A stretch of DNA of 64,000 nucleotides, taken from assembly GCA_964016885.1 (NCBI GenBank), contig OZ024740.1, forward strand, positions 77,810,001 to 77,874,000. The letters are read 5' to 3'. Origin of the DNA: Eledone cirrhosa. Lineage: Eukaryota. The notes beneath the pieces are model-generated. The model made no database searches. It was not told where the DNA came from and worked only from the letters and a program-made list of their open reading frames with translations. Both the position numbers and the translations under genes were made by a program. Below are positions 24,505 through 61,232 of the stretch, piece after piece. How positions within the stretch are numbered: position 1 is the stretch's first letter; each line of letters opens with the position of its first letter.

Positions 24505-24545
24505 GTTTTAACGTTTCGGACGTTAGTCTATCATCAGAAGTTAGA
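24505..24545 (-). ncRNA. HHR-like minimal motif (family O)
   Basis: CTGATGA-TAGAC-TAAC-GTCC-GAAA-CGTT with palindromic AACGTT; stem I is weak. Confidence 0.45.
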
Positions 24546-27093: not shown

Positions 27094-27823
27094 GCGATAC
27101 TTGGTTTTAGTGTCCTAAATTATCCTCATCGACATTCAATTATTAGCTCCACCCACTACACGATACGTCACGAAGATAAAATGTTTCGAAAAAATGTTAA
27201 ACTGTATATCGAAACAATATATTGTTTAAAGAAAATTTTTTTCTGTTGTTAAAAACTGTAAATCTGTTTTAAAAAAATGTATTTCGCAGCAATTTTTTTT
27301 TCTGTTAAAAACTGTAAATAAATATTCATGTAAAAATGAGGCATAGTGTTTCGGTTAAATACATATTTTTTTAACAGATTTACAGTTTTAAACAACGAAA
27401 AAAAAATTCTTTAAACAATATATTGTTGCGATATACAGTTTAAAATTTTTTCGAAACATTTACCTTCGTGACGAATCGTGTGTTAAAAAAAAAATGTATT
27501 TCGCAGCAATTTTTTTTCTGTTAAAAACTGTAAATAAATATTCATGTAAAAATGAAGCATAGTTTTTCTGTGAAAAACTGTAAATAAATATTTATTTTGT
27601 TCAAAAAATAAATCAAAAATCTAATTTTCTCTGTTAATATTTTAATAAATATTTTTTCTAAAAATTCAATGTTTTTTTGTGTAAAAATGAAGCATGTAAG
27701 AAAATGAATATGTAAAAATCAAGGAGCAGCAGCTGATGACGTGTCGTGACGTATCGTGTAGTGGGTGGAGCTAATAATTGAATGTCAATGATGATAATTA
27801 GGACACTAAAACCAAGTATCGCC
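27094..27823. mobile_element. Fold-back/MITE-like element with ~78-bp terminal inverted repeats and nested internal repeats
   Basis: GGCGATACTTGGTTTTAGTGTCC... at 27094 and its reverse complement ending 27823; inner inverted pair ~27158-27285 / 27357-27481; TTAAAAACTGTAAAT repeats. Confidence 0.75.
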
Positions 27824-27926
27824 CTTTTAGCCCATAGAAATTAACTAGACAAATAATTATAATCTATGAAACGGAGCTAGGTCTAAAATATAAATTAGAA
27901 GAAAAAACTTTACCAAAATTCCTCTA

Positions 27927-28012
27927 GTCCCGACTGTCGACAGTTTCGTTCGCACTTTGTGGATATATCCGATCCTGGTATTATCCATGAGGCTTCGAGC
28001 TTATCAAGAGAC
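27927..28012 (-). ncRNA. Type I HHR with U3-A8 core (family J)
   Basis: Minus strand: GTCTC-TTGATAA-GCTCG...CGAAC-GAAA-CTGTCGACAG-TC-GGGAC; 12-nt palindromic helix III; GUC site. Confidence 0.8.
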
Positions 28013-28460
28013 CTCTCAGGTTTGGAGTAAAATTTCCACAGTGAACACCGCCAGAAATGAATTCAAAATGGCTAGTGGTCAAAGTAGAAGGTTGTAAATG
28101 GAGGCCAGGCGGCAGGTAGGCTGGCTGCTAAAAAACGCAGCCAGATACTGCCTAAAGTTTTACTCTACCGTGCGGGAGTATATATTAAATTCATAGGGAT
28201 ATATGTATATATTTAGACATATATTCAGACATAGTCACAGATACATATATGAGTGTGGCTACCTTTCACGGTGTGGCTCAATGAAAGATTTAATTAAGCA
28301 AATAATTATTAATCAGAGCTATATATAAAAATTACAAGTTTGAAGAATTATTAGATAAAATATATCCAGTCTTTCTTCACCCTAGTCCGTAGAAATCAAT
28401 ATATATATATACATACATATATACACACACATATATACAGATATATATATATATATATAA

Positions 28461-29041
28461 TATTATAAATCATGTCTACAGAATTATTAGATAAACAAAA
28501 TATATACTCCATTTCCTCTGCCAAACAGCACAATCAGCCATATAAAAAAATCAATTATACTAACCCATAAGGATAAAAGCTCCTATGAAGAAATCTCCGA
28601 CAAATAAACGAGAGTGGCTTCTTCGCGGTATCCACAGCAGGTTATTTATCCAACATTTCGACAGCATGCATAAATCGACCAAGTACATAATTAACCATAT
28701 ACAATTCGGTGTAAAATCAAACATAGAAGAACTGTGTACATACCGTAATATAGTTACGGTATGTACACAGTTCTTCTATGTTTGATTTTACACCGAATTG
28801 CATATGGTTAATTATGTACTTGGTCGATTTATGCATGCTGTCGAAATGTTGGATAAATAACCTGCTGTGGATACCGCGAAGAAGCCACTCTCGTTTATTT
28901 GTCGGAGATTTCTTCATAGGAGCTTTTATCCTTATGGGTTAGTATAATTGATTTTTTTATATGGCTGATTGTGCTGTTTGGCAGAGGAAATGGAGTATAT
29001 ATTTTGTTTATCTAATAATTCTGTAGACATGATTTATAATA
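28461..29041. repeat. Near-perfect 581-bp palindrome (288-bp arms, 5-nt loop 28749-28753)
   Basis: Mirror ORFs 28585-28785 (+) and 28717-28917 (-); one arm mismatch noticed; the left end abuts (TA)n. Confidence 0.95.
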
Positions 29042-29131
29042 ATATATTGCTCTGAGTATTTAATTTATTAATTCTTCATAGAGCTAAAAAGTGACCGGTT
29101 GTAACATATATAAATTTATGTATATGTAAAC

Positions 29132-29175
<44 letters not shown>

Positions 29176-29181
<6 letters not shown>

Positions 29182-29588
29182 TAGCGAGAATCGAATTTCA
29201 GCTCAGGAATTAACGAAAAACACTTCCGAGTTGTGTGGCAAGCGCTCGATAATTCATATGAATTAGTGCTACAACATACGTTAAAGGCCAAACACACTGA
29301 GATGGTGGTTAAACTAATCATCCGCACAGCTAAAAAAAAACGATCAAGCAATTCAGGTCAAACAAATAAAAATATATGTGATTGAAAATTTACCCGGACC
29401 CCTGGAGATGGTAAAATCCAGTATTTGGGTTTCTGCGGCTCCATAAATCAATTACTGTCCGCTTATATAAAGAATGTTAGGCTTCTGGTAAGATGACTGA
29501 ACAAGGAAGCCACTTTTTCAACGGGATTCTGCTCAAATGCTATACTCATCACAGTTTGTGATTAATTCCTGACCCCACGTCGGAGTTC

Positions 29589-29650
<62 letters not shown>

Positions 29651-30057
29651 AACTCCACGTCGGGGTCCAGTAATAATCACACTTATGTATAGCATTTGAG
29701 CAGAATCCCGTTGAAAAGTGGCTTCATTGTTCAGTCATCTTACCAGAAGCCTAACATTCTTTATATAAGCGGACAGTAATTGATTTATGGAGCCGCAGAA
29801 ACCACAAATACTGGATTTTACCATCTCCAGGGGTCGGGTAAATTTTCAATCACATATATTTTTATTGTTTGACCTGAATTGCTTGATCGTTTTTTTTTTA
29901 GCTGTAGCGGATGATTAGTTTAACCACCCATCTCAGTGTGTTGGGCCCTTTAACGTAGTGTAGCACTAATTCATATGAATTATCGAGCGCTTGCCACACA
30001 AACTCGGAAGTGTTTTTCGTTAATTCCTGAGCTGAAATTCGATTCTCGCTAATTTAT
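29176..30057. repeat. ~415-bp inverted repeat arms around a (TA)n spacer
   Basis: 29176-29593 is the reverse complement of 29645-30057 apart from scattered 1-nt indels; (TA)n on both outer sides. Confidence 0.9.
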
Positions 30058-30307
30058 ATATATATAAATATATTAAGAAACACACAGATACATGCGGACA
30101 CACACATATATACATGAATGCATCCGCACCCAACTGTGAGTTAAGGGTGCCAACTTCACCGATGTTGCTCAATGAATGACTGGGACAGACCAATTCAGTT
30201 TGAACCAGACTGAACCAGTATCAGAGTTAAAAATACATTATGAAGAGAGAAGAAACATTTAGATATAATTAGTAATAAAATGTATCATACCTAAACTGTT
30301 CCTAAAT

Positions 30308-30395
30308 TCCTCGACTACGTAGTTTCGTGGCATAAACAAAAACAATATATCAAAGATATAGAGTCCTTGCGAGGTCTGCCGACTTATCAAGAGGA
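30308..30395 (-). ncRNA. Type I HHR with U3-A8 core (family K), inverted copy
   Basis: Reverse complement of 30732-30819. Confidence 0.8.
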
Positions 30396-30731
30396 TACCT
30401 CATTTTACTAGTCTCAAGAACGCGTCTACACGACGTGTCCGCATGTATCTGTGTGTTTCTTAATATATTAATAACTCCCTCTGGTCGAGCAATCTTTGAA
30501 GTGTGGGGACAACTGGAAAGCTTCCATTACTCATACTTCTCGCCTTCTTCACTACCTCTTCTACGGCCTCGATATGAATACCCCCTCCGCCTCCGTGGTA
30601 TTTTCTTCGTGGTTATAAGAGGCTTAGCTCTGTTTCTCGACCGTTATATCGCGTGACTATCTCCCCCTCCGCCTTTTGGGATTCTTTCTCACGTCGTGTA
30701 GACGCGTTCTTGAGACTAGTAAAATGAGGTA

Positions 30732-30819
30732 TCCTCTTGATAAGTCGGCAGACCTCGCAAGGACTCTATATCTTTGATATATTGTTTTTGTTTATGCCAC
30801 GAAACTACGTAGTCGAGGA
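30732..30819 (+). ncRNA. Type I HHR with U3-A8 core (family K)
   Basis: TCCTC-TTGATAA(30737)-GTCGGCA...TGCCAC-GAAA(30801)-CTACGTAG-TC-GAGGA; palindromic ACTACGTAGT; GUC site, cleavage expected after 30814. Confidence 0.82.
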
Positions 30820-31322
30820 ATTTAGGAACAGTTTAGGTATGATACATTTTATTACTAATTATATCTAAATGTTTCTTCTCTCTTCATAATGTATTTTTAA
30901 CTCTGATACTGGTTCAGTCTGGTTCAAACTGAATTGGTCTGTCCCAGTCATTCATTGAGCAACATCGGTGAAGTTGGCACCCTTAACTCACAGTTGGGTG
31001 CGGATGCATTCATGTATATATGTGTGTGTCCGCATGTATCTGTGTGTTTCTTAATATATTAATAACTCCCTCTGGTCGAGCAATCTTTGAAGTGTGGGGA
31101 CAACTGGAAAGCTTCCATTACTCATACTTCTCGCCTTCTTCACTACCTCTTCTACGGCCTCGATATGAATACCCCCTCCGCCTCCGTGGTATTTTCTTCG
31201 TGGTTATAAGAGGCTTAGCTCTGTTTCTCGACCGTTATATCGCGTGACTATCTCCCCCTCCGCCTTTTGGGATTCTTTCTCACGTCGTGTAGACGCGTTC
31301 TTGAGACTAGTAAAATGAGGTA

Positions 31323-31410
31323 TCCTCTTGATAAGTCGGCAGACCTCGCAAGGACTCTATATCTTTGATATATTGTTTTTGTTTATGCCACGAAACTACG
31401 TAGTCGAGGA
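31323..31410 (+). ncRNA. Type I HHR with U3-A8 core (family K), second tandem copy
   Basis: Same sequence as 30732-30819, 591 bp downstream. Confidence 0.82.
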
Positions 31411-31479
31411 ATTTAGGAACAGTTTAGGTATGATACATTTTATTACTAATTATATCTAAATGTTTCTTCTCTCTTCATA

Positions 31480-31535
<56 letters not shown>

Positions 31536-34552: not shown

Positions 34553-34686
34553 ATATATATATATATATATATAAATGAAAAGTATAGAAATTATTATGAG
34601 CAAGAAGCACACAGTATTTCATTATATATATATATATATATATATGAAAATAAAGCAAATAAGCCTTCAATACATCAAAAGTCTTT

Positions 34687-34732
34687 ATTAGCCAACAATG
34701 TTTCGTCCTATTAAGGACTCATCAGGGCAATC
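34687..34732 (-). ncRNA. Type I HHR (family N), left inverted arm
   Basis: Reverse complement of 35419-35464; arms 34643-34765 / 35386-35508. Confidence 0.88.
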
Positions 34733-35418
34733 AAAACCACAAGAAGCACTATCGGCCAATACAAGAATTGATTTGTTAACTTACATGCCATTATATATTA
34801 TATATTATTATATTATTATTATAGTGTTATTGTGACATCTATATTGTTTGTGTAAATTAACCGGAGATTACCTATTATATTATATTATATATTATATAAT
34901 TATATAGTTTATTATATATTATATTATTGAATATTATATGTGTTACTTTTAATCATTTCATTACTTCATGTTATACTGTATATTAGATATACGTATTATT
35001 TTTATTTTTATTCCTATTATGCTTATTTATATTTAAACTCTTAATAAGGTTTAATTTGTGCTGTTAATAATGGAAATGTGTATTTATGTATGTGTGCGTA
35101 CGTGTGCGTATATATATACATATGTATACTGTGCCTTTTAATTTTAATTTTAATTTTAATATTGTTACAAGTATATTATATTATATTATATTGTATTATA
35201 TATAGTACTATAATTCCCGCTCTATATAACCACCTTTGTTTAGCTCTAGTTTTTTTGCTTTGGACTATATTTGTAATATGGTTCAAAATGTTATCCACCT
35301 CCTTAGTGATTTTTATTATATATTTTTACCCATAATCTTCCAATACTTTAGTGTATGTACACTCCATATTCTTCGGAGTTTTCGGCTTGTATTGGCCGAT
35401 AGTGCTTCTTGTGGTTTT

Positions 35419-35464
35419 GATTGCCCTGATGAGTCCTTAATAGGACGAAACATTGTTGGCTAAT
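35419..35464 (+). ncRNA. Canonical minimal type I HHR (family N)
   Basis: ATTGCC-CTGATGA(35426)-GTCC-TTAATA-GGAC-GAAA-C-ATT-G-TT-GGCTAAT; GUU site, cleavage expected after 35457; AATAAA at 35462. Confidence 0.9.
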
Positions 35465-35624
35465 AAAGACTTTTGATGTATTGAAGGGTTCTTTGCTTTA
35501 TTTTCATAATTCTTCGGCTCTGTTTAATTACATTGAGCTATACCTTTTACTGTCATTTCTATAATACGAAGAGGGTGTTTAACTCCAACACGCTCCAGTA
35601 TTTTAATCCTTATATATATATATA

Positions 35625-51669: not shown

Positions 51670-51978
51670 TTATTACTATAAATGAGAATAAGAGTGAGAG
51701 ATAGCTAAATAGATATGTTTCTTTTATTTGCCACCAGGGCATCAAAAGTGGGACACGTACAATGGGGGGAGTTTACAAAACAAGGCGTCCTCAATAAGGA
51801 GGAGGCAATAACAATATATAAAAATAAAATAAAATATAACAAAAATAAAATTTATAACAAAGTCTTCAATAGAGAGGAGGCGCCTTGGGGGGTCGCACAC
51901 TCCCCCGAAAAAAGTGTGCAACCCTTCTCCTCAGGAGCACAGAGAAAGGGTGCTCCCTTGGTCTTTCATCTTCCTCAC

Positions 51979-54900
51979 CTATAGTCTGATGTAGAGTGAA
52001 GGCCCATTCACACGGGCCATTCTCGCCACTTTCACCCATCTTTCATAGAAACGGCTGGGGTGCAGCACCTCTCTCTCCATCCTGATCCTTCTTCCGAAAT
52101 GATATCGGAAGAAACGGACCAGTTGTTGGCCAGAGAGAAAGGTGTCTGACCTCAGTCCTTTCAGACGCGTCCACCATACAACCTCTTTCGCCATGGCTAT
52201 TACGCACAGAAACACCGCCTCTCCTTCGTTTTTGAAGAGGGGAGGCGGCTTGATCGTTACAATAGACTCGGTGGTCAACCGGATCGGTCCCACCCTTGAC
52301 AGCAGTTGTTCGACATAGCCCCACAGATCGGCAATGCCCGAGCAGTGTACCAATGCGTGTGCAACGGTTTCCTCGTCGCACACGCATCTGGGACAGACCT
52401 TTTTCGATGGGTCCCTACCCGGGCGCCCGTGTCTGTAGAGCCTTTCTCGAACGGGCAGAGCCCTTCTGTAGCATTGCCAGGCCAGGGACCTCTGGAAGTT
52501 ATCCATGGGTCCCGGGCTGAATGTCCTACCGAACAGGTTGGCCAGTTCGTCTTCCTCCATGCCTAGGGCTTCTCCGAGGGCGTCGTCGCACCTGCTAACC
52601 ACCAGCTCTCTATAGAATGACGAGGTGGATTCTCCACTGACAGCCGGGTCCGCCTGCCAGAGAGCCGTGAGCGCCTGGGCACACTCGGTGTGCCAGGCGC
52701 CCAGTTTTCTCGGTCTTTGCTTGACCCAGGATTGCAGCTCGGTGAGTGAGACGAGTCTGGGAAAGGCTCGCCTCACAAACGGAGCCCACACTGGTTGACC
52801 GGAGAGGAATACCTGAAGGTGCCGTAGCCTTAATGCGTGTTTACGTATCATCAGCCACGGCATCCCCAGCCCTCCTTTCGAAGGGTGTTGACAGCAGATG
52901 GATCTCCTCACCATAGGAGCCCGCTTCTTCCAAAGGAATTGGAAGAGTGCGCGCTCCATTTTGGCGAGCGTTTCCCTTGGGCAAGGCACCACGATCAGGC
53001 GGTAGTAGATGACGGACGCTATATAAGTGTTCGCCACCTCCGCCTGACCTTTCAGGGACAGTTTGCACTCGGCCCACTTCTGGGTCAGTGCAAACACCCT
53101 GCTCGTCACCTCACCCCAGTTCTTCTCCACCTGGAGGTCTGGTCCGAACCAGACCCCGAGCAATTTCACCGGGCCCTCCGTCCAGCGCCCGACGACGCCA
53201 TCGGAGGGCATCGATCTGCCCCTCCACGTGCCGAGTTGCAGACCGATCGACTTGTCCCGGTTCAGCTTAGCCCCTGTAAACCTTTCGTACTCCTCCAGTA
53301 AGGTGCCGATCGCCCCGATTTCCGAGGCCGTCGACACCATTACTGTTACGTCATCGGCGTAGGCTGACACCGCTTTCCGCAATCCCGGTTCCAACGGGAT
53401 GCCCTGCAACAACTCCAACTTCCGCAGCAGTGGCTCTAGAGTCACTACATACAGAAGGGAGGAGAGAGGGCACCCCTGTCAGATGGACCGCGCGATTTCG
53501 AACGGCTCCGAGAGGTAGCCGTTCACCTTGACCCTAGAGCAGATGCGGCTGCTGTGCATGGCATTGATCCAGCCCCTGAAAACGGGTCCGAAGCCTGCCG
53601 CCGCTAGCACCGCATCCAGGTAACCATGGTCGACCCTATCGAATGCCTTAGATTGATCCAAGTTGATCAGGGTCCCACCAAAGCCGGGTTCGTTCCCAAC
53701 CCTCTCTATGATGTATCGCATGAGGTGGAGGTTATCGTGGATGGACCTGGACGGGATAGCACATGTCTGCGCATCTCCTACCAGGTTGCCCACGACAAGC
53801 GCCAACCTCCTTGCTAGCACCTTGGCCAAAATCTGTAACTCTGTATTTAGCAGAGTTATGGGCCTGAAATTATTTATATCGTCCCCCTTGTTCTCGTCCT
53901 TCCTCACTAGCGTGACTACGCCCTTGGTCACAGCACAGGGAATTCTCCCGTTCTGTCGCCAGTTGCAGTAGACCGCCTCGAGGAGTTCGGGGAACAAGTC
54001 CGGCATAGCTAGATATAGTTCGTATGGAAGACCATCGAGACCCGGGGATTTGCGTTTGCCGCATTGGCTCAGCACGTCCTCTATTTCAGCGGCTGAAATC
54101 GGCTCCTCGCAGGACTTCGCCTCCCTGTCCGAGAGACGCGGCAGGCCGTCGAGGTATGGACCGAAGTCCACGTCCCCAACCGGCCCCCCGCCCCTTCCGA
54201 ACAATTCGGCAAAGTGCTTTTGAAAAGCCTCGCACATCTGCTTAGGTTCAAGGATCACCCGTCCATCCTGGTCTCGCAAAGACCGGATAGTGGATCTGCT
54301 CCCTCTTTTGGCTTCTGTCACGCGGGCCCAGCTAACAGCTTTGGTCCCCTCGTTTCCCAGAGCACGTATTTTGCTTCGGACGATGCAGCCTTCGTGTTTC
54401 GCGTCGAAGAACTGGCCCAGGGCCGTTCTCGACGCTAGCACTCTGGCTACGTCGCCGCTTCTAATTGCCTCTTCTACACTATCTACCAACTTCCTTTCCT
54501 TCCTATTTCTATTGGAGGCTAACTCCTTACTAAATTCTATAGAGACTGCTCTAATCTCTCTTTTGAGAGATCCCCACCACCTGCTGTTGACGATGGCGCC
54601 CGTCAACCGCTCCTTAACTAAAGTGCTAATCCGGTTCCTGTAAGCCTTACTTGCCGGTAAGGACAAGTTGAGCTTCCAGTAACCGGGTCCCTGTCTATGA
54701 GTTCTGTCAAGGTTGACCATGCAGGTCACTAATTTGTGGTCTGAATAGCCAACCATGCGCATTTTTGGACAATTTAAAAAGTCCTTATCCTTAATTCTAA
54801 CTAAGAACCTATCTAGGTACGACCTAGATGTTCCGCTACGATTTGCCCAAGTCCAGGTTGGCGCAGTCGGAAAATCTAGTCGATATCTATCGGCCAGGTC

Positions 54901-55416
54901 AAATCGACCGATTAACCCTTTGAGGCTATTACACCCCTCTCTATCGGGACAGGCCCCTACGTAGTCCCAGCGTGCATCTAGGATACCATTCCAGTCCCCC
55001 ACTAATAGCAAGGAGCGGGACGTCCCTAGAAAAGTCTCCAGACGATGAAAGAAGTCCGGCCGCATTGACCCGAAAGGGCCGTAGGCGGCTACCAACCTAA
55101 ACGCTCCGCCTTTACCACTGCCAAGGTCCAGAACCACTAGTCGACCCTCCGGGTCCAAATGTACCATCTGTGTTGCGAGACCCAGATGTTTTTGCAGCAG
55201 AACAACAACTCCACCCCCACCTCCGGGCTGACAGAGAGATGCGTGCATCTCAAAGTCATCAAAGGTGGGGGCCAGCTGTCGCACGTTGCTGATCCGGGCC
55301 TCGCAAATAACCATCACATCTATACGTTGTGACCTGAGGTCATTTAGAAGCATTGCTTGCTTCCAAGTTGAGCCCAGGCCACGCGCATTTAAACAGCCTA
55401 CTCTTAGCATAGCCAT
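51979..55416 (-). pseudogene. LINE ORF2 (APE endonuclease, reverse transcriptase, C-terminal Cys/His domain) with one in-frame premature stop
   Basis: LNARGL, GDWN, LDR, SDH (APE); PGLDG, FRPITLLN, DQSKAFD, SI*QGCPLS, YADD (RT); CPRC..ETVAHALVHC. The two listed ORFs (53479-55440 and 51979-53445) are in the same frame, separated by TGA at 53479-53481. Confidence 0.93.
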
Positions 55417-55738
55417 GTTGGTGGTGAAGAGAAAAGGCACTTACCTCTCTGCGTCCCGGGTATCGGGCTGCACAATTTCCATTAGGGTGGGGGATGGGTT
55501 GTTGGGTGGGGTGGTGGTTTGTGGAAGTGTAGGGGCATCAGTGTGTTGTGTGGTTGGGGAGCTTGGAGTTGTGTGGGTGTTTGGGGAGGGGGTGGGATAG
55601 TTTTTTAGGAGGACGCGGTTAATGGGCCCAACGCAGGGGGGACCCACGTCCTCTTTAAAATTGTTTTTTAAAGTTTTATAGGTGTCCTGTGGGGCCTTAA
55701 TCATTTTGAGGTGGGGGAAATCCCCTGCCTGGGTGAAG

Positions 55739-56980
55739 TTAGGCCCTTGTGTTTTTATTAGATTGTTGTTGTACACAATGTTTAACAGTTTTTTGTTTCT
55801 TGTGTTTATGTATGTGTATGCATGTTTTTGTTTTTGTGTGGTGTTTTTTGTTTGCTGTTGTTGTGAGCTCTTTTGTGTTGGTGTCAGTGTTATGTTTTGG
55901 GGAGGGGTTGTTTTCATTTGTGTGTCTGAGGTGTGTTTTCTTTTTTTTTCTTTTGATTGTGTGGAAGTGCTCCTCCTCGTCTGACGACGAACTAGGGTCA
56001 TCTTCCGCGTTGGAGGGGAGGGGTATATTTTCGGGTTGTGTTTGCGGTACGGGTGTTTTGGAAATTGTTTTTGTTTTTTGAGTGGAGGGGATGGGTTGGA
56101 CATTGTTTTGTTTTGGTTTGAGCTGTGGTGGTTGTTTATGTAGTGGTAGTTGTGGTGATTGTGTTGGTTGTGCAGTTGTTGGTGGTGTAGGCAGGATTGG
56201 GGATTTCTTATTAAGTTGGGGACAGACAGCCCTCAGGTGACCTCTGGTTCCGCAGAGGTAACACGAGGGCCGTCTACCCTCAACGGTAATGTTGATGAAG
56301 GTTAGATCATCCAGTATGACGCGTTCAGGGATCTGGGCGATCCTTTCGGGCCTCATTTGAACTACAAGTTCGAGGCTCGTTCCACTGAACGCGTCACCCG
56401 ATGCCTTTCCCATGGACACCAGCATGTCATCCTCCAGGTCCAGAAAACCTGTCAAAACCCACCATATGTCCATAATCGGCAGGATGGTGTGGATTTTTAT
56501 TTTTTGTGTTCTTCTACCCATGTACGTAGGGTAGAAGGTGTATGCGGTGGATGTGATTGGTTTGATGGACAGTTTCACTGCTGTGTCCCTGTCCTTCATG
56601 AGAATGGATAGACTCCCGTAGAGTCTATCCTTCTGAATGAAGGTGATGTCCTTCATGACGTCTTTTAAAACCAGCTCTATCTCGCTCTGTGATGGTTGAG
56701 CTGGTTTTTTACTTTTGTTCGAGATTGTCCTAAACATGACCGTGTTTAGGAGTCTCTGGCTTTTTAGTTCCGGGGGGGAATGGATTGTGAATGAACCATT
56801 TTCTCCGTACACTATATATTTTTTCGCATCCGCCAGTAGCTCCTTCGCTTTGGTTATATCTACTGGCAGATAGTCGAGGGTTTTCCTTGTCGTCTCGGCG
56901 AAGGAGAAATTTTGTTTGTTTGTGTTGTTGTTGTCGTTGGTGGTGTTGTTGTTATCATTGTTGTTGTTGTCACCGTTATT
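55739..56980 (-). CDS. LINE ORF1 (gag-like, zinc knuckle), 5'-truncated; possible frameshifted continuation to 55441
   Basis: CYLCGTRGHLRAVC CCHC motif; the frame stays open upstream of 56812 (NNGDNNNN...FSFAETTRKTLDYLP) to the (GATA)n tract without an ATG. Confidence 0.75.
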   Translation of the reverse strand, partial: NNGDNNNNDNNNTTNDNNNTNKQNFSFAETTRKTLDYLPVDITKAKELLADAKKYIVYGENGSFTIHSPPELKSQRLLNTVMFRTISNKSKKPAQPSQSEIELVLKDVMKDITFIQKDRLYGSLSILMKDRDTAVKLSIKPITSTAYTFYPTYMGRRTQKIKIHTILPIMDIWWVLTGFLDLEDDMLVSMGKASGDAFSGTSLELVVQMRPERIAQIPERVILDDLTFINITVEGRRPSCYLCGTRGHLRAVCPQLNKKSPILPTPPTTAQPTQSPQLPLHKQPPQLKPKQNNVQPIPSTQKTKTISKTPVPQTQPENIPLPSNAEDDPSSSSDEEEHFHTIKRKKKKTHLRHTNENNPSPKHNTDTNTKELTTTANKKHHTKTKTCIHIHKHKKQKTVKHCVQQQSNKNTRA

Positions 56981-57037
<57 letters not shown>

Positions 57038-57039
<2 letters not shown>

Positions 57040-59525
57040 TTCTTTATTTGCCACAAGGGCGCACAAGAAATGGAACATTACAAGATGTGACGGCGAGGGT
57101 TTTGAAAATAATCGTGTAAATAAATGTAACAACTATAAATAAAAAATCGAAATCTCCAGTAGTGGGGAACGTTACTCCGGAGATAGAACAACCCTCAACA
57201 CCAGGATCCCGTTTTGTAAGTGCTCCCGTCTTCCCTCTTTTGTCTTCTTCAACCTACAGGTTTATATACAGAGAAGGCCCATTCACTCGGACCAATTTCT
57301 CCATATTCACCCACCTTTTAGCGAATTTACTGGCGTGCAGCACCTCTCTCTCCACTCTCACCTCCCTTTTGAAATTGCATTTAAAGAGTTGTTGTCCGGA
57401 GAGGAAGGTGTTTGCCCTCAGTCCTTTCAGTCTCGTGCACCATATCGCTTCTTTCACCATACAGAGGAAAACCATCTCTCCGTCGGTGTTAAATGAAGGT
57501 GACGGAGTAATCCTCACGATGGACTCGGCTGACTGTTGGATTCGTCCTACATGTGACAGAAGCTGTTCGACATAATTCCACAGGTCGGTAACTTCTGGGC
57601 ACTGAACTATTGAATCTTGGACAGGTCCTTTTGGCAGAGTCTCTGCCAGGGCATCTGTGCCCGTAGATTTTATCTCGAACTGGTAGAGCTTCTCGGTAGC
57701 ACTACCAGGCCAGAGAAGTCCTCTGGAATAGACTGGCCAGTTCGTCCCCTTCGACGCCCAGAGTTTCCACGAAAACGTTGTTGCACTTATCCTCCACTAA
57801 TCCCCAACAGAATATTGGCGTGGAGTTTCCACTGATTGACGTTTACGCCTGGTAGAAGACTGTGAGCACCTGAGCGCACTCTAGTTGCTTGGCGCCCGTT
57901 TTCGGTCTTTGCTTGACCCAGGAGAGCAGCTCCATTAGCGAGACAAGCTGTGGAAAAGCTTGTCTCACGAAAGACCACCACACCGGTTCAGCGGTCAGGA
58001 ATACCTGTAGATGGCGTAGCTTCAGCGCGTTTTTACGCATCATCAGCCACGACATTCCCAGCCCCTCGTGGGAAGGGTATTGGCAGCTTCCAAAGAAACT
58101 GGAAAAGTAGACGTTCCATTTTGTCGAGGTGATCACGGGGACAAAGCATGACTGTCAAGTGGTAGTTGATGGCGGACGCTATATAAGTGTTCACCACTTC
58201 CACTCGACCTTTTAAGGAGAGTGTGTGATCAGCTCACTTCTAGGTGAGCGCAAACACCTTCACCGTGACCTCGTTCCAGTTTTTATCCACCTGGAGGTCT
58301 GGATCGAACCAGACTCAGAGCAATTTCACCGGTACTTCCGTCCAGCGACCAACGACGCCATCGGACGGCATGGGTTTGCCTCTACAGTTGCCAAGCTACA
58401 AACCAACAGACACATCCACGTTTATTTTTGCTCCCATCAACGTTTTATATTCCTGTAACAAGTTGCCATTACTCCGATTTCCGAAGTTTTCGACACCATT
58501 ACAGTGACATCGTCGGCAAAGCTGACACTGCCTTTCCAAGTCCTGGTTCAAGTGGTATGCCCTGCAACAGCTCCAACGTCTGCAGTAGTGGTTAAAGTGT
58601 CAGTAGATACAGAAGGGAGGAGAGAGGGCATCCTTGACGGATGGAACGCGTGATTTGACATGGCTCCGACAGATTTCAAATGGCTACTGAGCAGATGCTG
58701 CTGTGCATGACAATGATCCAGCCTCTGAAGACGGGACCGAAGCCAGCCGCTGTAAGCACCCCTCCCAAGTATTGATGGTCATTCGTATCAAATACTTTAG
58801 ATTGATCTAAATTGATCATAGGCCCGCCAAAGCCAGGTTTACACCCTACCCTCTCTATGATGTATCGTATGAGGTGGAGGTTGTCGTGGATGGACCTGGT
58901 TGGGATTGTATAAGTTTGCGCTTCCCCTACCAGGTTCTTGACGACGAGCACCAACCTCGTTGCTAACACCTTCAACTCTGTGTTGAGCAGAGTTTTGTGC
59001 CTAAAATTGCTTCTGGCATTCCCTTTGCTCTCATCTTTCCTGATCAGTGTTACTACCTCATCAGTTTACAGAACTGGGAATTCTCCCGTTCTACTGTCCG
59101 TTGCAGCAGACCGCTTCGAAGACGTCAGAAAACAAGTCAGGAATGCCTACATAAAACTCATAGGGTAGACCATCCAAACCAGATGATTTGCGACTCCCAC
59201 AGTTGTCTAGGGGTGGTCTTGTATTTCACCCGCTGTTATCGGCCTTCCGCAGCTCTCCGCACCCGTGTCCGAGAGTCACGGTATGCCATCGAGGTAGGAA
59301 CTGAAAGCCATCACCCCGTCCGACACACCGCTCGGCCCGAACAGTTGCGCAAAGTGCCGCTGGAAAGCCACACACATCTGCTTGCATTCCAGTAGCACGC
59401 ATCTATTTTGGTTTTCCTAAGACCGAATTATGGCTATGTACTTCTGACAATACAACCTTTGTGTTTCCCGTTGAAGAACTGATCTAGTGCCGTTAGCACG
59501 TCAGCTGTACTGCCACTCTTAAGAG
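57038..59525 (-). mobile_element. Older, degenerate 5'-truncated Tx1 copy in tandem with the main element
   Basis: Fragment ORFs homologous to ORF2 (SIHDNLHLIRYIIERVG; KEAIWCTRLKGLR); bounded by (GATA)n at 56981-57037 and 59528-59540. Confidence 0.9.
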
Positions 59526-60016
59526 CCAGATAGATAGATAACCTTGGTAATAATATCCATTTATATATATGTTAAATCATTTCCACTTAACATTTGTCGG
59601 ATTGTACATATTTATTATAACTAATGATAAATAATTGTTTCTACTTTTGGCACAAGGCCAGCAATTATTCCAGTGCATTACTGGTATTTTATTTCATCGA
59701 CCCCGTAAGGATGAAAGGCAAAGTTAACCTCGGCGGGATTTGAACTCAGATCATAAAGGGCCATAACTCTTTGCTGAAAAGCATGGTATTCGACCCTCTA
59801 CCGATACTGCCAATCCACCGCCCTACTTAATGATAAATAATAAGATCATTCACGAGTCGATAAAATAGATTTCAGCTGAATGTGCTTTTATTATCGCTTG
59901 TTCCCTCCCTATTGAATTTGTGGTCGTATTCCTCAGTAGGTAGGCTCCTATCAATCTATCTATCTATCTATCTATCTGGTGGCAAATAAAAGAAACATAT
60001 CTATCTATTTATCTGT

Positions 60017-61232
60017 CTCGGCAAAATGGAGCGCGCGCTCTTCCAATTCCTTTGGAAGAAACGGGCTCCTTTGGTGAGAAGATCCATCTGCTGCCAACAC
60101 TCTTCAAACGGAGGGCTGGGGATGCCATGGCTGACGATGCGCAAACACGCGCTCAAGCTGCGGCACCTCCACGTATTCCTCACCGGACAACCCGTGTGAG
60201 CCCCGTTCGTGAGGCGAACCTTCCATTCGCTAACCGAGCCGCAGTCCTTGGTCAAGCAAAGACCGAGGAAAATGGGCGACTGGCACATCGAATATGCTCA
60301 GGCGCTCACAGTCCTCTGGCAAACGGACCCGGCGATCAGTGGAGACTCCACTTCGACATTCTATAGAGGGTTGGTCCGCAGCAAGTGCGACGACGCGCTC
60401 GGAGAAACTCTAGGCGTAGAGGAGGACGAACTGGCCAGTCTGTTCGGTCGGACCTTCCGCTCGCGACCGATGGACAACTTCCAAAAGTCCCTGGCCTGGC
60501 AGTGCTACCGAGGAGCTCCACCAGTTCGAGACAAGCTCTACAGACACGGGCGCCCGGGTAGGGATCCTTCGAAAAAGATCTGTCCGAGATGCGTGCGCGA
60601 AGAGGAAACCGTCGCGCACACATTTGTACACTGCCCGGGTGTTACCGACCTGTGAGGCTATTTAGAACGACTATTGTCGCGAGTGGGACCAATCCAGTTG
60701 ACCACCGAGTCCATTGTCATGATCAAACCGCCACCCTCCTTCAAAACCGAAGGAGAGGCGGTTTTCCTATGTGTTATGGCTATGGTGAAAGAGGTTATAT
60801 GGTGGACGAGGTTGAAAGGGCTGAGGTCAGACACCTTTCTCTCCGGCGAACAACTGATTCGTTTTTTCAAATATTATTTTGGAAGAAGAATCAGGATGGA
60901 GAGAGAGGTGCTGTACCCCAGCAAATTTTATGAAAGGTGGGTGAAAGTGGCAAAGATGGCCCGAGTGGTTGGGCCTTCTCTCTATATAAGCCTGTAGGTT
61001 GGGGAAAAAGAGGAAGAGAGGAAAGGAGTACTCACTCTTGGTGCTCCTGGAGATGAGGGTTGTACATTTTTTTTTCGGGTGTGTACAATCCCTGTGTAAC
61101 GCCTCCCCCTTCAATTGTTATTTGTTATTTTATTAATAGTTTTATTTTCATATACCTGTATGTAGACTCCTCATTTGTATTCGTCCCCTTCTTTTGTGCC
61201 CTTGAGGCTAATAAAGAAATTTATCTATCTAT
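60017..61232 (+). mobile_element. 5'-truncated Tx1 copy, preceded by a ~25-bp 3'-end-only copy at 59978-60005
   Basis: ORFs 60209-60655 and 60674-60997 match the ORF2 C-terminus; (TCTA)n on both sides. Confidence 0.9.

Follow-up and report, generated by a model that had tools for sequence, protein, structure and literature searches.

U3-A8 hammerhead motifs in two non-coding tandem-repeat families of Eledone cirrhosa, and C-G, U·G and U-A core forms among their relatives

How the tertiary catalytic pair 3-8 of a hammerhead ribozyme can be swapped without loss of function is a question raised by a stretch of 64,000 nucleotides of the Eledone cirrhosa genome (contig OZ024740.1, positions 77,810,001 to 77,874,000 of the forward strand; hereafter the window). 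Two families of hammerhead motifs in the window, J and K, read TTGATAA (U3-A8) in place of CTGANGA (C3-G8) in the catalytic core, and both were followed through the host genome, which is 3.0 Gb long and repeat-rich. We consider it likely that J and K are non-coding tandem repeats with predicted dimer-cleaving type I hammerheads, probably copied by Penelope-like elements (PLEs), and that the core forms in the clade of J mark a stepwise compensatory swap of the pair.

The U3-A8 variant and this class of element are already published, so the original prediction, which treated the variant as uncommon, overstated its novelty. In the relevant sections of the sources cited here and below, C3-G8 to U3-A8 covariation in nature was reported in 2011, with stem I-stem II pseudoknots predicted in ~40% of hammerheads (Perreault et al., PMC3088659), and ~1,300 U3-A8 minimal hammerheads were matched by a dedicated descriptor in PLEs of Schistosoma mansoni, with UUGAUAA shown in a supplementary alignment (Cervera and de la Peña 2014, PMC4209133). 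The addition made here is the series of C-G, U·G and U-A cores with covariation of a pseudoknot and of a dimeric helix III. Sister subfamilies with these three cores, 72-90% alike, are ready-made constructs for the question above and for a second one, whether retrozymes and Penelope elements need hammerhead cleavage to transpose, a need that became doubtful after an in vitro study.

Hammerhead motifs of families J and K

Four type I hammerhead motifs were found where the original prediction had placed them, one of J and three of K. All four have the core UUGAUAA, a stem I, a stem II that is closed by G-C and extended by an insert of ~50 nt, GAAA, a perfectly palindromic helix III and GUC, in agreement with the type I definition (N3 U G A N N8 A, G A A, A15.1-U16.1 and H17) in its U3-A8 variant. 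The elements and their parts are as follows.

27822..28408, minus strand: J element, a single incomplete copy of a non-coding tandem repeat (unit ~720 bp), aligning over -401..+185 from the core
27926..28018, minus strand: J hammerhead, with U3-A8 core, extended stem II, GAAA, palindromic helix III and GUC
28018-28014, minus strand: J loop I TGAGA (TGAGG in the family)
28013-28008 with 27931-27926, minus strand: J stem I
28007-28001, minus strand: J core TTGATAA
27992-27988, minus strand: CCTCA in the extended stem II of J
27948-27944, minus strand: CGAAA of J
27944-27933, minus strand: J helix III palindrome ACTGTCGACAGT
27932/27931, minus strand: predicted cut of J after GUC
30063..30437, minus strand: inverted arm of the K insertion (99.7% identity with 30690-31064), which stops within a TA run near unit position 35-39
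30308..30402, minus strand: K hammerhead copy 1, U3-A8, with core 30390-30384 and predicted cut 30313/30312
30435..31485, plus strand: tandem arm of the K insertion, a 591-bp unit (30435-31025) and 460 bp of a second, 100% identical
30725..30819, plus strand: K hammerhead copy 2, with core 30737-30743 and predicted cut 30814/30815
Parts of K copy 2, plus strand: TGAGG 30725-30729, stem I TCCTC/GAGGA, CCTCG 30753-30757 and helix III 30804-30813
31316..31410, plus strand: K hammerhead copy 3, 591 nt downstream of copy 2, with core 31328-31334 and predicted cut 31405/31406
31486..31528, no strand: (TA)n run that follows the K arm on its 3' side, with the same junction in K and J-clade copies elsewhere

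The three K copies, previously taken as separate, are 99.7-100% identical parts of one young insertion, with the first copy on the minus strand. The inverted arm is 375 bp long, and the tandem arm stops 80 nt beyond the predicted cut site; the (TA)n run that follows is likely the target site of the insertion. At the sequence level, the tandem arm holds an intact hammerhead pair (K helix III palindrome ACTACGTAGT, stem I TCCTC/GAGGA), in which copy 3 is the likely helix III dimer partner of copy 2. The J repeat is older. Its copy in the window is probably inactive because it is single, truncated at its 3' side ~185 nt past the core and carries two mismatches, one of them in stem II (CGAAC, where relatives read CGAGC).

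The U3-A8 core is the family state of both K and J because TTGATAA dominates the genome-wide matches of each, as had been predicted, and is not a sporadic change on a CTGATGA consensus. With positions 3 and 8 left degenerate, the K core pattern gave 5,857 exact matches genome-wide (0 in the reversed control), and TTGATAA was read in 99 of the 100 K matches listed. C3 was found in four of the 5,857, always with A8, and C3-G8 in none; U3·G8 was found in eight copies genome-wide with a pattern 2 nt shorter. Single core changes in K were thus rare and symmetric, as expected after insertion. The J pattern returned TTGATAA in all 28 matches, with none in the control. One K array (C19:18237718 and 18238309) has the same rare U3·G8 change in both units, which is what repeated copying of a single template would produce.

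Further U3-A8 families with a short stem II were recovered (107 matches, 11 in the control) and score as unrelated to J. One of them, family M, has helix III ACAATTGT and a long interrupted stem I, and another, family N, has no clear stem I. The series of core forms was not seen in family M, which comprised 15 U-A, two U·G, one C·A and no C-G copies among 18.

Rfam gave no hammerhead match in the window at the gathering score and none among the 55 matches to E=10, in line with the earlier expectation that a CUGANGA descriptor would miss U3-A8 motifs; the C3-G8 hammerhead motifs of the window were likewise missed. Weak Rfam matches to miRNAs in the window were rejected as inverted repeats. K alone adds ~5,900 motifs missed by Rfam; descriptors for hammerhead searches need to accept U3·G8 and U3-A8 cores and a long insert in stem II.

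Covariation, predicted fold and kinship of J and K

Covariation was scored on 48 copies, whose rows were chosen from the C-G, U·G and U-A core states to span the subfamilies. Within this choice of rows, pair 3-8 was paired in 48 of 48 copies (21 U-A, 15 C-G and 12 U·G). Over the whole structure, 92.9% of cells were paired, compared with 35-41% in slid structures, and nine pairs had changed on both sides. Helices I, II and III all covary and helix I is open, which is the type I arrangement. The original prediction had read the double change at 3-8 as compensatory and under selection and had named covariation as a check; this alignment and a C3-G8 sister family of J (below) both support and strengthen that reading.

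A 5-bp pseudoknot between loop I and loop II was predicted, in which NGAGG upstream of stem I pairs with CCTCN in the internal loop of stem II. It was 95% paired, a figure to which the search patterns contributed by partly imposing CCTC. Its outer pair was C-G in 16, U-A in 14 and U·G in 14 copies (four other), and was also U·G, C-G or U-A across the K subfamilies. Helix III remained palindromic through several double changes, and the pair that would close a loop of 2 nt in a monomer still covaries (29 C-G, 13 U-A and four U·G). Such a covarying palindrome centre is direct sequence evidence for dimeric cleavage. The covariation thus supports the predicted loop I/loop II pseudoknot and a dimeric helix III, and cleavage as a dimer of adjacent units is favoured because helix III covaries at a pair impossible in a monomer and because that of K is predicted to form a self-duplex (-12.9 kcal/mol) and no hairpin.

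Several points weigh against this structure. A two-sided change was found in one of the five pseudoknot pairs, in which CCTC was required by the search patterns; the outer pair of stem I was unpaired in 31 of the 48 copies; and the shuffles used for covariation ignore the relatedness of the copies. In all three folds, computed with no pseudoknots or dimers modelled, the hammerhead fold lay 4-5 kcal/mol above the predicted minimum free energy of the monomer.

J and K had been described as unrelated. To assess their kinship, the flanks of the ribozyme were aligned from a fixed anchor, leaving out the core, between K and the best of 73 J-clade copies. The score was 55.5, against 36.0 for the best of 38 control hammerhead-like motifs, and was reached by none of 300 structure-preserving shuffles. 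K shares TGAGGTATC with the C-G subfamilies and the helix III arms CTAC/GTAG with the U·G subfamily, and a second K subfamily reads GTC GGGGACTA, like J. Whole-unit homology between J and K was not found by nhmmer with an 18-copy J-clade profile against K, nor by blastn, and the stem II inserts of K and the J clade do not align, as a joint tree would need. Judged from the flanks, the ribozyme modules of J and K likely share an ancestor; therefore, the two families should not be counted as two independent origins and are best read as distant relatives.

The pair 3-8 across the J clade

A C3-G8 pattern gave 89 matches, nearly all from one sister family of J that is 72-82% identical to J over ~200-1,000 bp. 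With positions 3 and 8 free, the J clade comprised 161 matches genome-wide. A hand count of the first 100 gave 52 C-G, 32 U-A, 16 U·G and no C·A; over all 161, there were 27 U·G, three C·A and two A·A copies, the C·A copies being singletons on differing backgrounds. The main C3-G8 subfamily reads GUA, not GUC, where the cut is predicted and has one extra base in helix III, and one U3-A8 subfamily alternates U7 and A7.

An unrooted tree was built from 97 of 108 rows (11 were dropped as too short) with both core columns masked. The groups fell in the order C-G/GUA, C-G/GUC, U·G and U-A, and 18 of the 23 U·G rows lay between the C-G clade (support 100/100) and the U-A side. The middle group is set apart from both of its neighbours by diagnostic letters: its helix III is CTACCGGTAG, its stem I pairs CGTCTC or TGTCTC with GAGACT, and its loop is CGAGG. 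From these letters and from its place on the tree, the wobble-core U·G group probably multiplied as a source lineage.

The tree also contains observations that count against this reading. Three U·G rows stood among the U-A copies, two U·G among the C-G copies and two U-A among the U·G copies; position 8 changes at least five times, so that part of the U·G copies are sporadic; and the bootstrap, at 0.964, was not yet stable, with many weak backbone forks. On these grounds, U·G might not be a lineage of its own and might have arisen by mutation after insertion or by recombination or gene conversion between C-G and U-A sources, which would make the ladder-like tree a mosaic artefact. Two of the 26 copies at the C-G end read TTGATGA, and the subfamilies look about equally old (mean pairwise difference 7-10%), as a mosaic would allow. 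Against it, U·G cannot result from a crossover on the 5' side of the core, and a crossover that falls between positions 3 and 8 should yield C·A just as readily, whereas the counts are 27 and three. In K, moreover, the two single-change classes are both rare and alike (eight and four of ~5,860), and the letters of the middle group are lacking on either side of it. An origin of U·G by mutation after insertion or as a mosaic is thus improbable, and we retain a U·G source lineage as the better account.

The change may have run either way: rooting of the J clade was dropped, as the groups overlap in age and were unevenly sampled. Beyond J, a long branch carries one more U3-A8 subfamily, the most diverged of all (mean pairwise difference 12.1%, compared with 7.3-9.6% in the others); that this subfamily and K are both U3-A8 hints at a direction from U-A to C-G. 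On the other side, the form general among hammerheads is C3-G8, and the sampling was uneven.

In engineered hammerheads, activity is strongly lowered by U3·G8. A tentative proposal, which we hold with less than even confidence, is that the U3·G8 lineage was nevertheless catalytically competent through the pseudoknot and the dimeric helix III, that it spread through the host genome and bridged the U3-A8 and C3-G8 subfamilies, and that the path may have led from an ancestral U-A to the canonical C-G. If so, the J clade would be a dated natural series of a catalytic pair crossing a fitness valley, and cleavage would be under selection in retrozyme transposition. A natural U3·G8 hammerhead family was not found in our literature searches, whose reach did not extend to Lunse et al. 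2017 and some supplements and in which term searches of PMC10085705 and PMC7151607 yielded nothing further, and the relevant sections of PMC3088659 differ from the present data in containing neither a U3·G8 family nor a within-genome series of subfamilies.

Carrier elements, their spread and neighbouring features

K forms dispersed tandem arrays with a period of ~591-595, often two-armed and with up to five cores on one arm, and the J-clade unit is ~650-720 bp long (period 719 at one array, locus L026). K arms end at unit position 460 or 34-42, which is ~80 or ~245 nt beyond the predicted cut (unit position 380), and continue into (TA)n; by hand count, nine of 11 distinct two-armed K insertions pair position 460 with 34-42, like that in the window. 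J-clade copies end ~385 nt from the core, also in (TA)n. No open reading frame (ORF) was found between units in the window or in the sampled J and K arrays, and no ORF of an autonomous PLE, with reverse transcriptase (RT) and GIY-YIG, was found in the window or joined to the sampled copies. Folded as a circle, the K monomer gave z = -6.8 relative to 30 shuffles.

A non-coding tandem unit with one type I hammerhead is the form of the animal non-LTR (long terminal repeat) retrozymes, a group that has been interpreted as non-autonomous derivatives of PLEs (Li et al. 2026, bioRxiv 10.64898/2026.07.22.740005). The insertions have the shape of PLE insertions, with partial tandem copies, an inverted 5' arm, fixed tail ends and a microsatellite target; tandem, inverted and tail structures and a (TA)n bias are described for PLEs (PMC8557442), and internal RT initiation for one PLE (PMC11167929). 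By analogy, J and K look as if they were mobilised by PLEs in the retrozyme manner because their insertion shape and (TA)n bias match those of PLEs and internal RT initiation fits their end points.

J and K might instead be solo or truncated pseudo-LTRs (pLTRs) of an autonomous PLE whose ORF-bearing copies were not sampled, or satellites that spread at the DNA level. Minimal hammerheads with a palindromic helix III and U3-A8 are indeed typical of pLTRs (PMC4209133), and the copies inspected were a small share of the ~5,900 of K. The sampled arrays, though, run unit into unit with no ORF in between, at a period of 590-591 in arrays of up to five cores; nearby PLE ORF fragments face the other way or are separated by TA runs; and the copies are dispersed with fixed ends, unlike satellites made by unequal crossover. 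Either origin is very improbable beside that of a PLE-copied retrozyme.

The host genome holds an intact family of 758-aa RT/GIY-YIG-like ORFs and a Neptune-like PLE family, each with its own C3-G8 hammerhead-like motif. The names PLE and Neptune-like rest on RT and GIY-YIG motifs and on Atlas look-alikes; Pfam matched no family in three PLE proteins. At 30 loci from each of the two PLE families, no sequence in common with J or K was found, and their C3-G8 hammerheads are of a different kind; the lack of a related autonomous partner among them counts against copying of J and K by PLEs. PLE copies near J and K were rejected as partners, being separate insertions in the same TA runs. The 758-aa family is young; in the hammerhead-like motif upstream of its ORF, stem II is weak, and helix III is 4 bp long and bears an 8-nt loop. 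The 3' ends of the Neptune-like PLE carry a CTGAAGA hammerhead-like motif and continue into (TA)n from two alternative ends ~57 nt apart.

The spread of J and K could proceed as follows. A transcript of a tandem array would bring two ribozymes together, with the halves of the palindromic helix III pairing across units; the 5-bp NGAGG/CCTCN pseudoknot would dock helices I and II, and each ribozyme would cut after GUC. K would thereby yield a 591-nt unit RNA, probably circularised by a host ligase. To judge from the insertion shape and the literature, a Penelope-type RT/GIY-YIG protein may nick (TA)n and prime at fixed internal positions of the RNA, which in K lie ~+80 and ~+245 nt from the cut and in the J clade ~+385 from the core; this would produce the tandem and inverted arms. 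The J clade has subfamilies with C-G, with U·G and with U-A at pair 3-8, C·A hardly ever occurs in it, and the U·G form may have been good enough for the continued spread of its source element.

Cleavage may also be unneeded for spread, with the hammerhead serving as a recognition or stability module or as a passenger, and with U·G reflecting relaxed selection on catalysis. An in vitro result stands against the need for cleavage: RNA with a dead hammerhead was inserted normally. The same study saw no RNA-seq read with its end at the cut site (PMC11167929). In vitro cleavage by PLE hammerheads is poor (PMC4209133), the Naiads have spread although they lack canonical hammerheads (PMC8557442), and the ends of J and K insertions never coincide with the predicted cut site. 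A mere passenger is hard to reconcile with subfamilies that differ by up to 25-28% and still keep the other core letters, the H17 triplet (GUC or GUA), the helix III palindrome and 3-8 pairing, and with C·A never founding a subfamily. We therefore regard spread independent of cleavage as unlikely, though as a stronger competitor than the mosaic or pLTR accounts, and favour self-cleaving repeats.

Besides the core variants of PMC3088659, three known systems resemble J and K. Like the hammerheads of the S. mansoni Penelope-like element Cercyon (PMC4209133), those of J and K are type I and U3-A8, have a palindromic helix III and are predicted to act as dimers, and Cercyon copies also lie in opposite orientation 100-700 bp apart. 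Unlike them, J and K have a stem II with a two- or three-part insert of ~50 nt and a predicted pseudoknot to loop I, a helix III of 5-6 bp, no ORF between units, and a U·G subfamily linking C-G and U-A relatives. With the animal non-LTR retrozymes (Cervera and de la Peña 2020, PMC7229834; 10.64898/2026.07.22.740005), J and K share a build of non-coding tandem units that each hold a single type I hammerhead, a low GC content, dispersal, a highly self-paired monomer and coexistence with PLEs. Their units of 591 and ~650-720 bp exceed the 170-400 nt of PMC7229834 and lie within the 51-972 bp of bioRxiv 10.64898/2026.07.22.740005; they also differ from these retrozymes in the non-canonical core, in that no sister pLTR was found and in being known from DNA alone. 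The Poseidon PLE of Anolis (Frangieh et al. 2024, PMC11167929) has a similar AT-rich target, two internal RT starts downstream of the hammerhead and tail ends, and C3-G8 swap mutants of it partly rescue cleavage; it is autonomous, and its starts are 30-40 nt apart, compared with ~165 nt in K.

Two runs labelled as other organisms (X1 and X6), compared with 30644-31391 of the window, each gave a single contig of 620-621 nt that corresponds to one K unit at a depth of ~8, with little other host repeat. As this contig could come equally from a tandem array, from trace DNA or from an RNA circle, it was not used as evidence of expression. A look-up of sequencing runs listed none recorded as RNA.

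Several other repeats were observed in the window. Between J and K lie two near-perfect palindromic repeat insertions, 28455-29047 (594 bp, 99%) and 29160-30073 (934 bp, 93%), both flanked by TA runs and probably further two-armed insertions of the PLE type. Positions 34643-34765 and 35386-35508 form an inverted pair (98%), each with a C3-G8 hammerhead-like motif (cores at ~34725 on the minus strand and ~35426 on the plus strand), and other C3-G8 motifs were located near 24537 and 23929 (both on the minus strand), 33899, 37377, 17857 and 7604. Positions 51889-61232 hold several copies of an endonuclease/RT non-LTR retrotransposon with long minus-strand ORFs (51979-57043).

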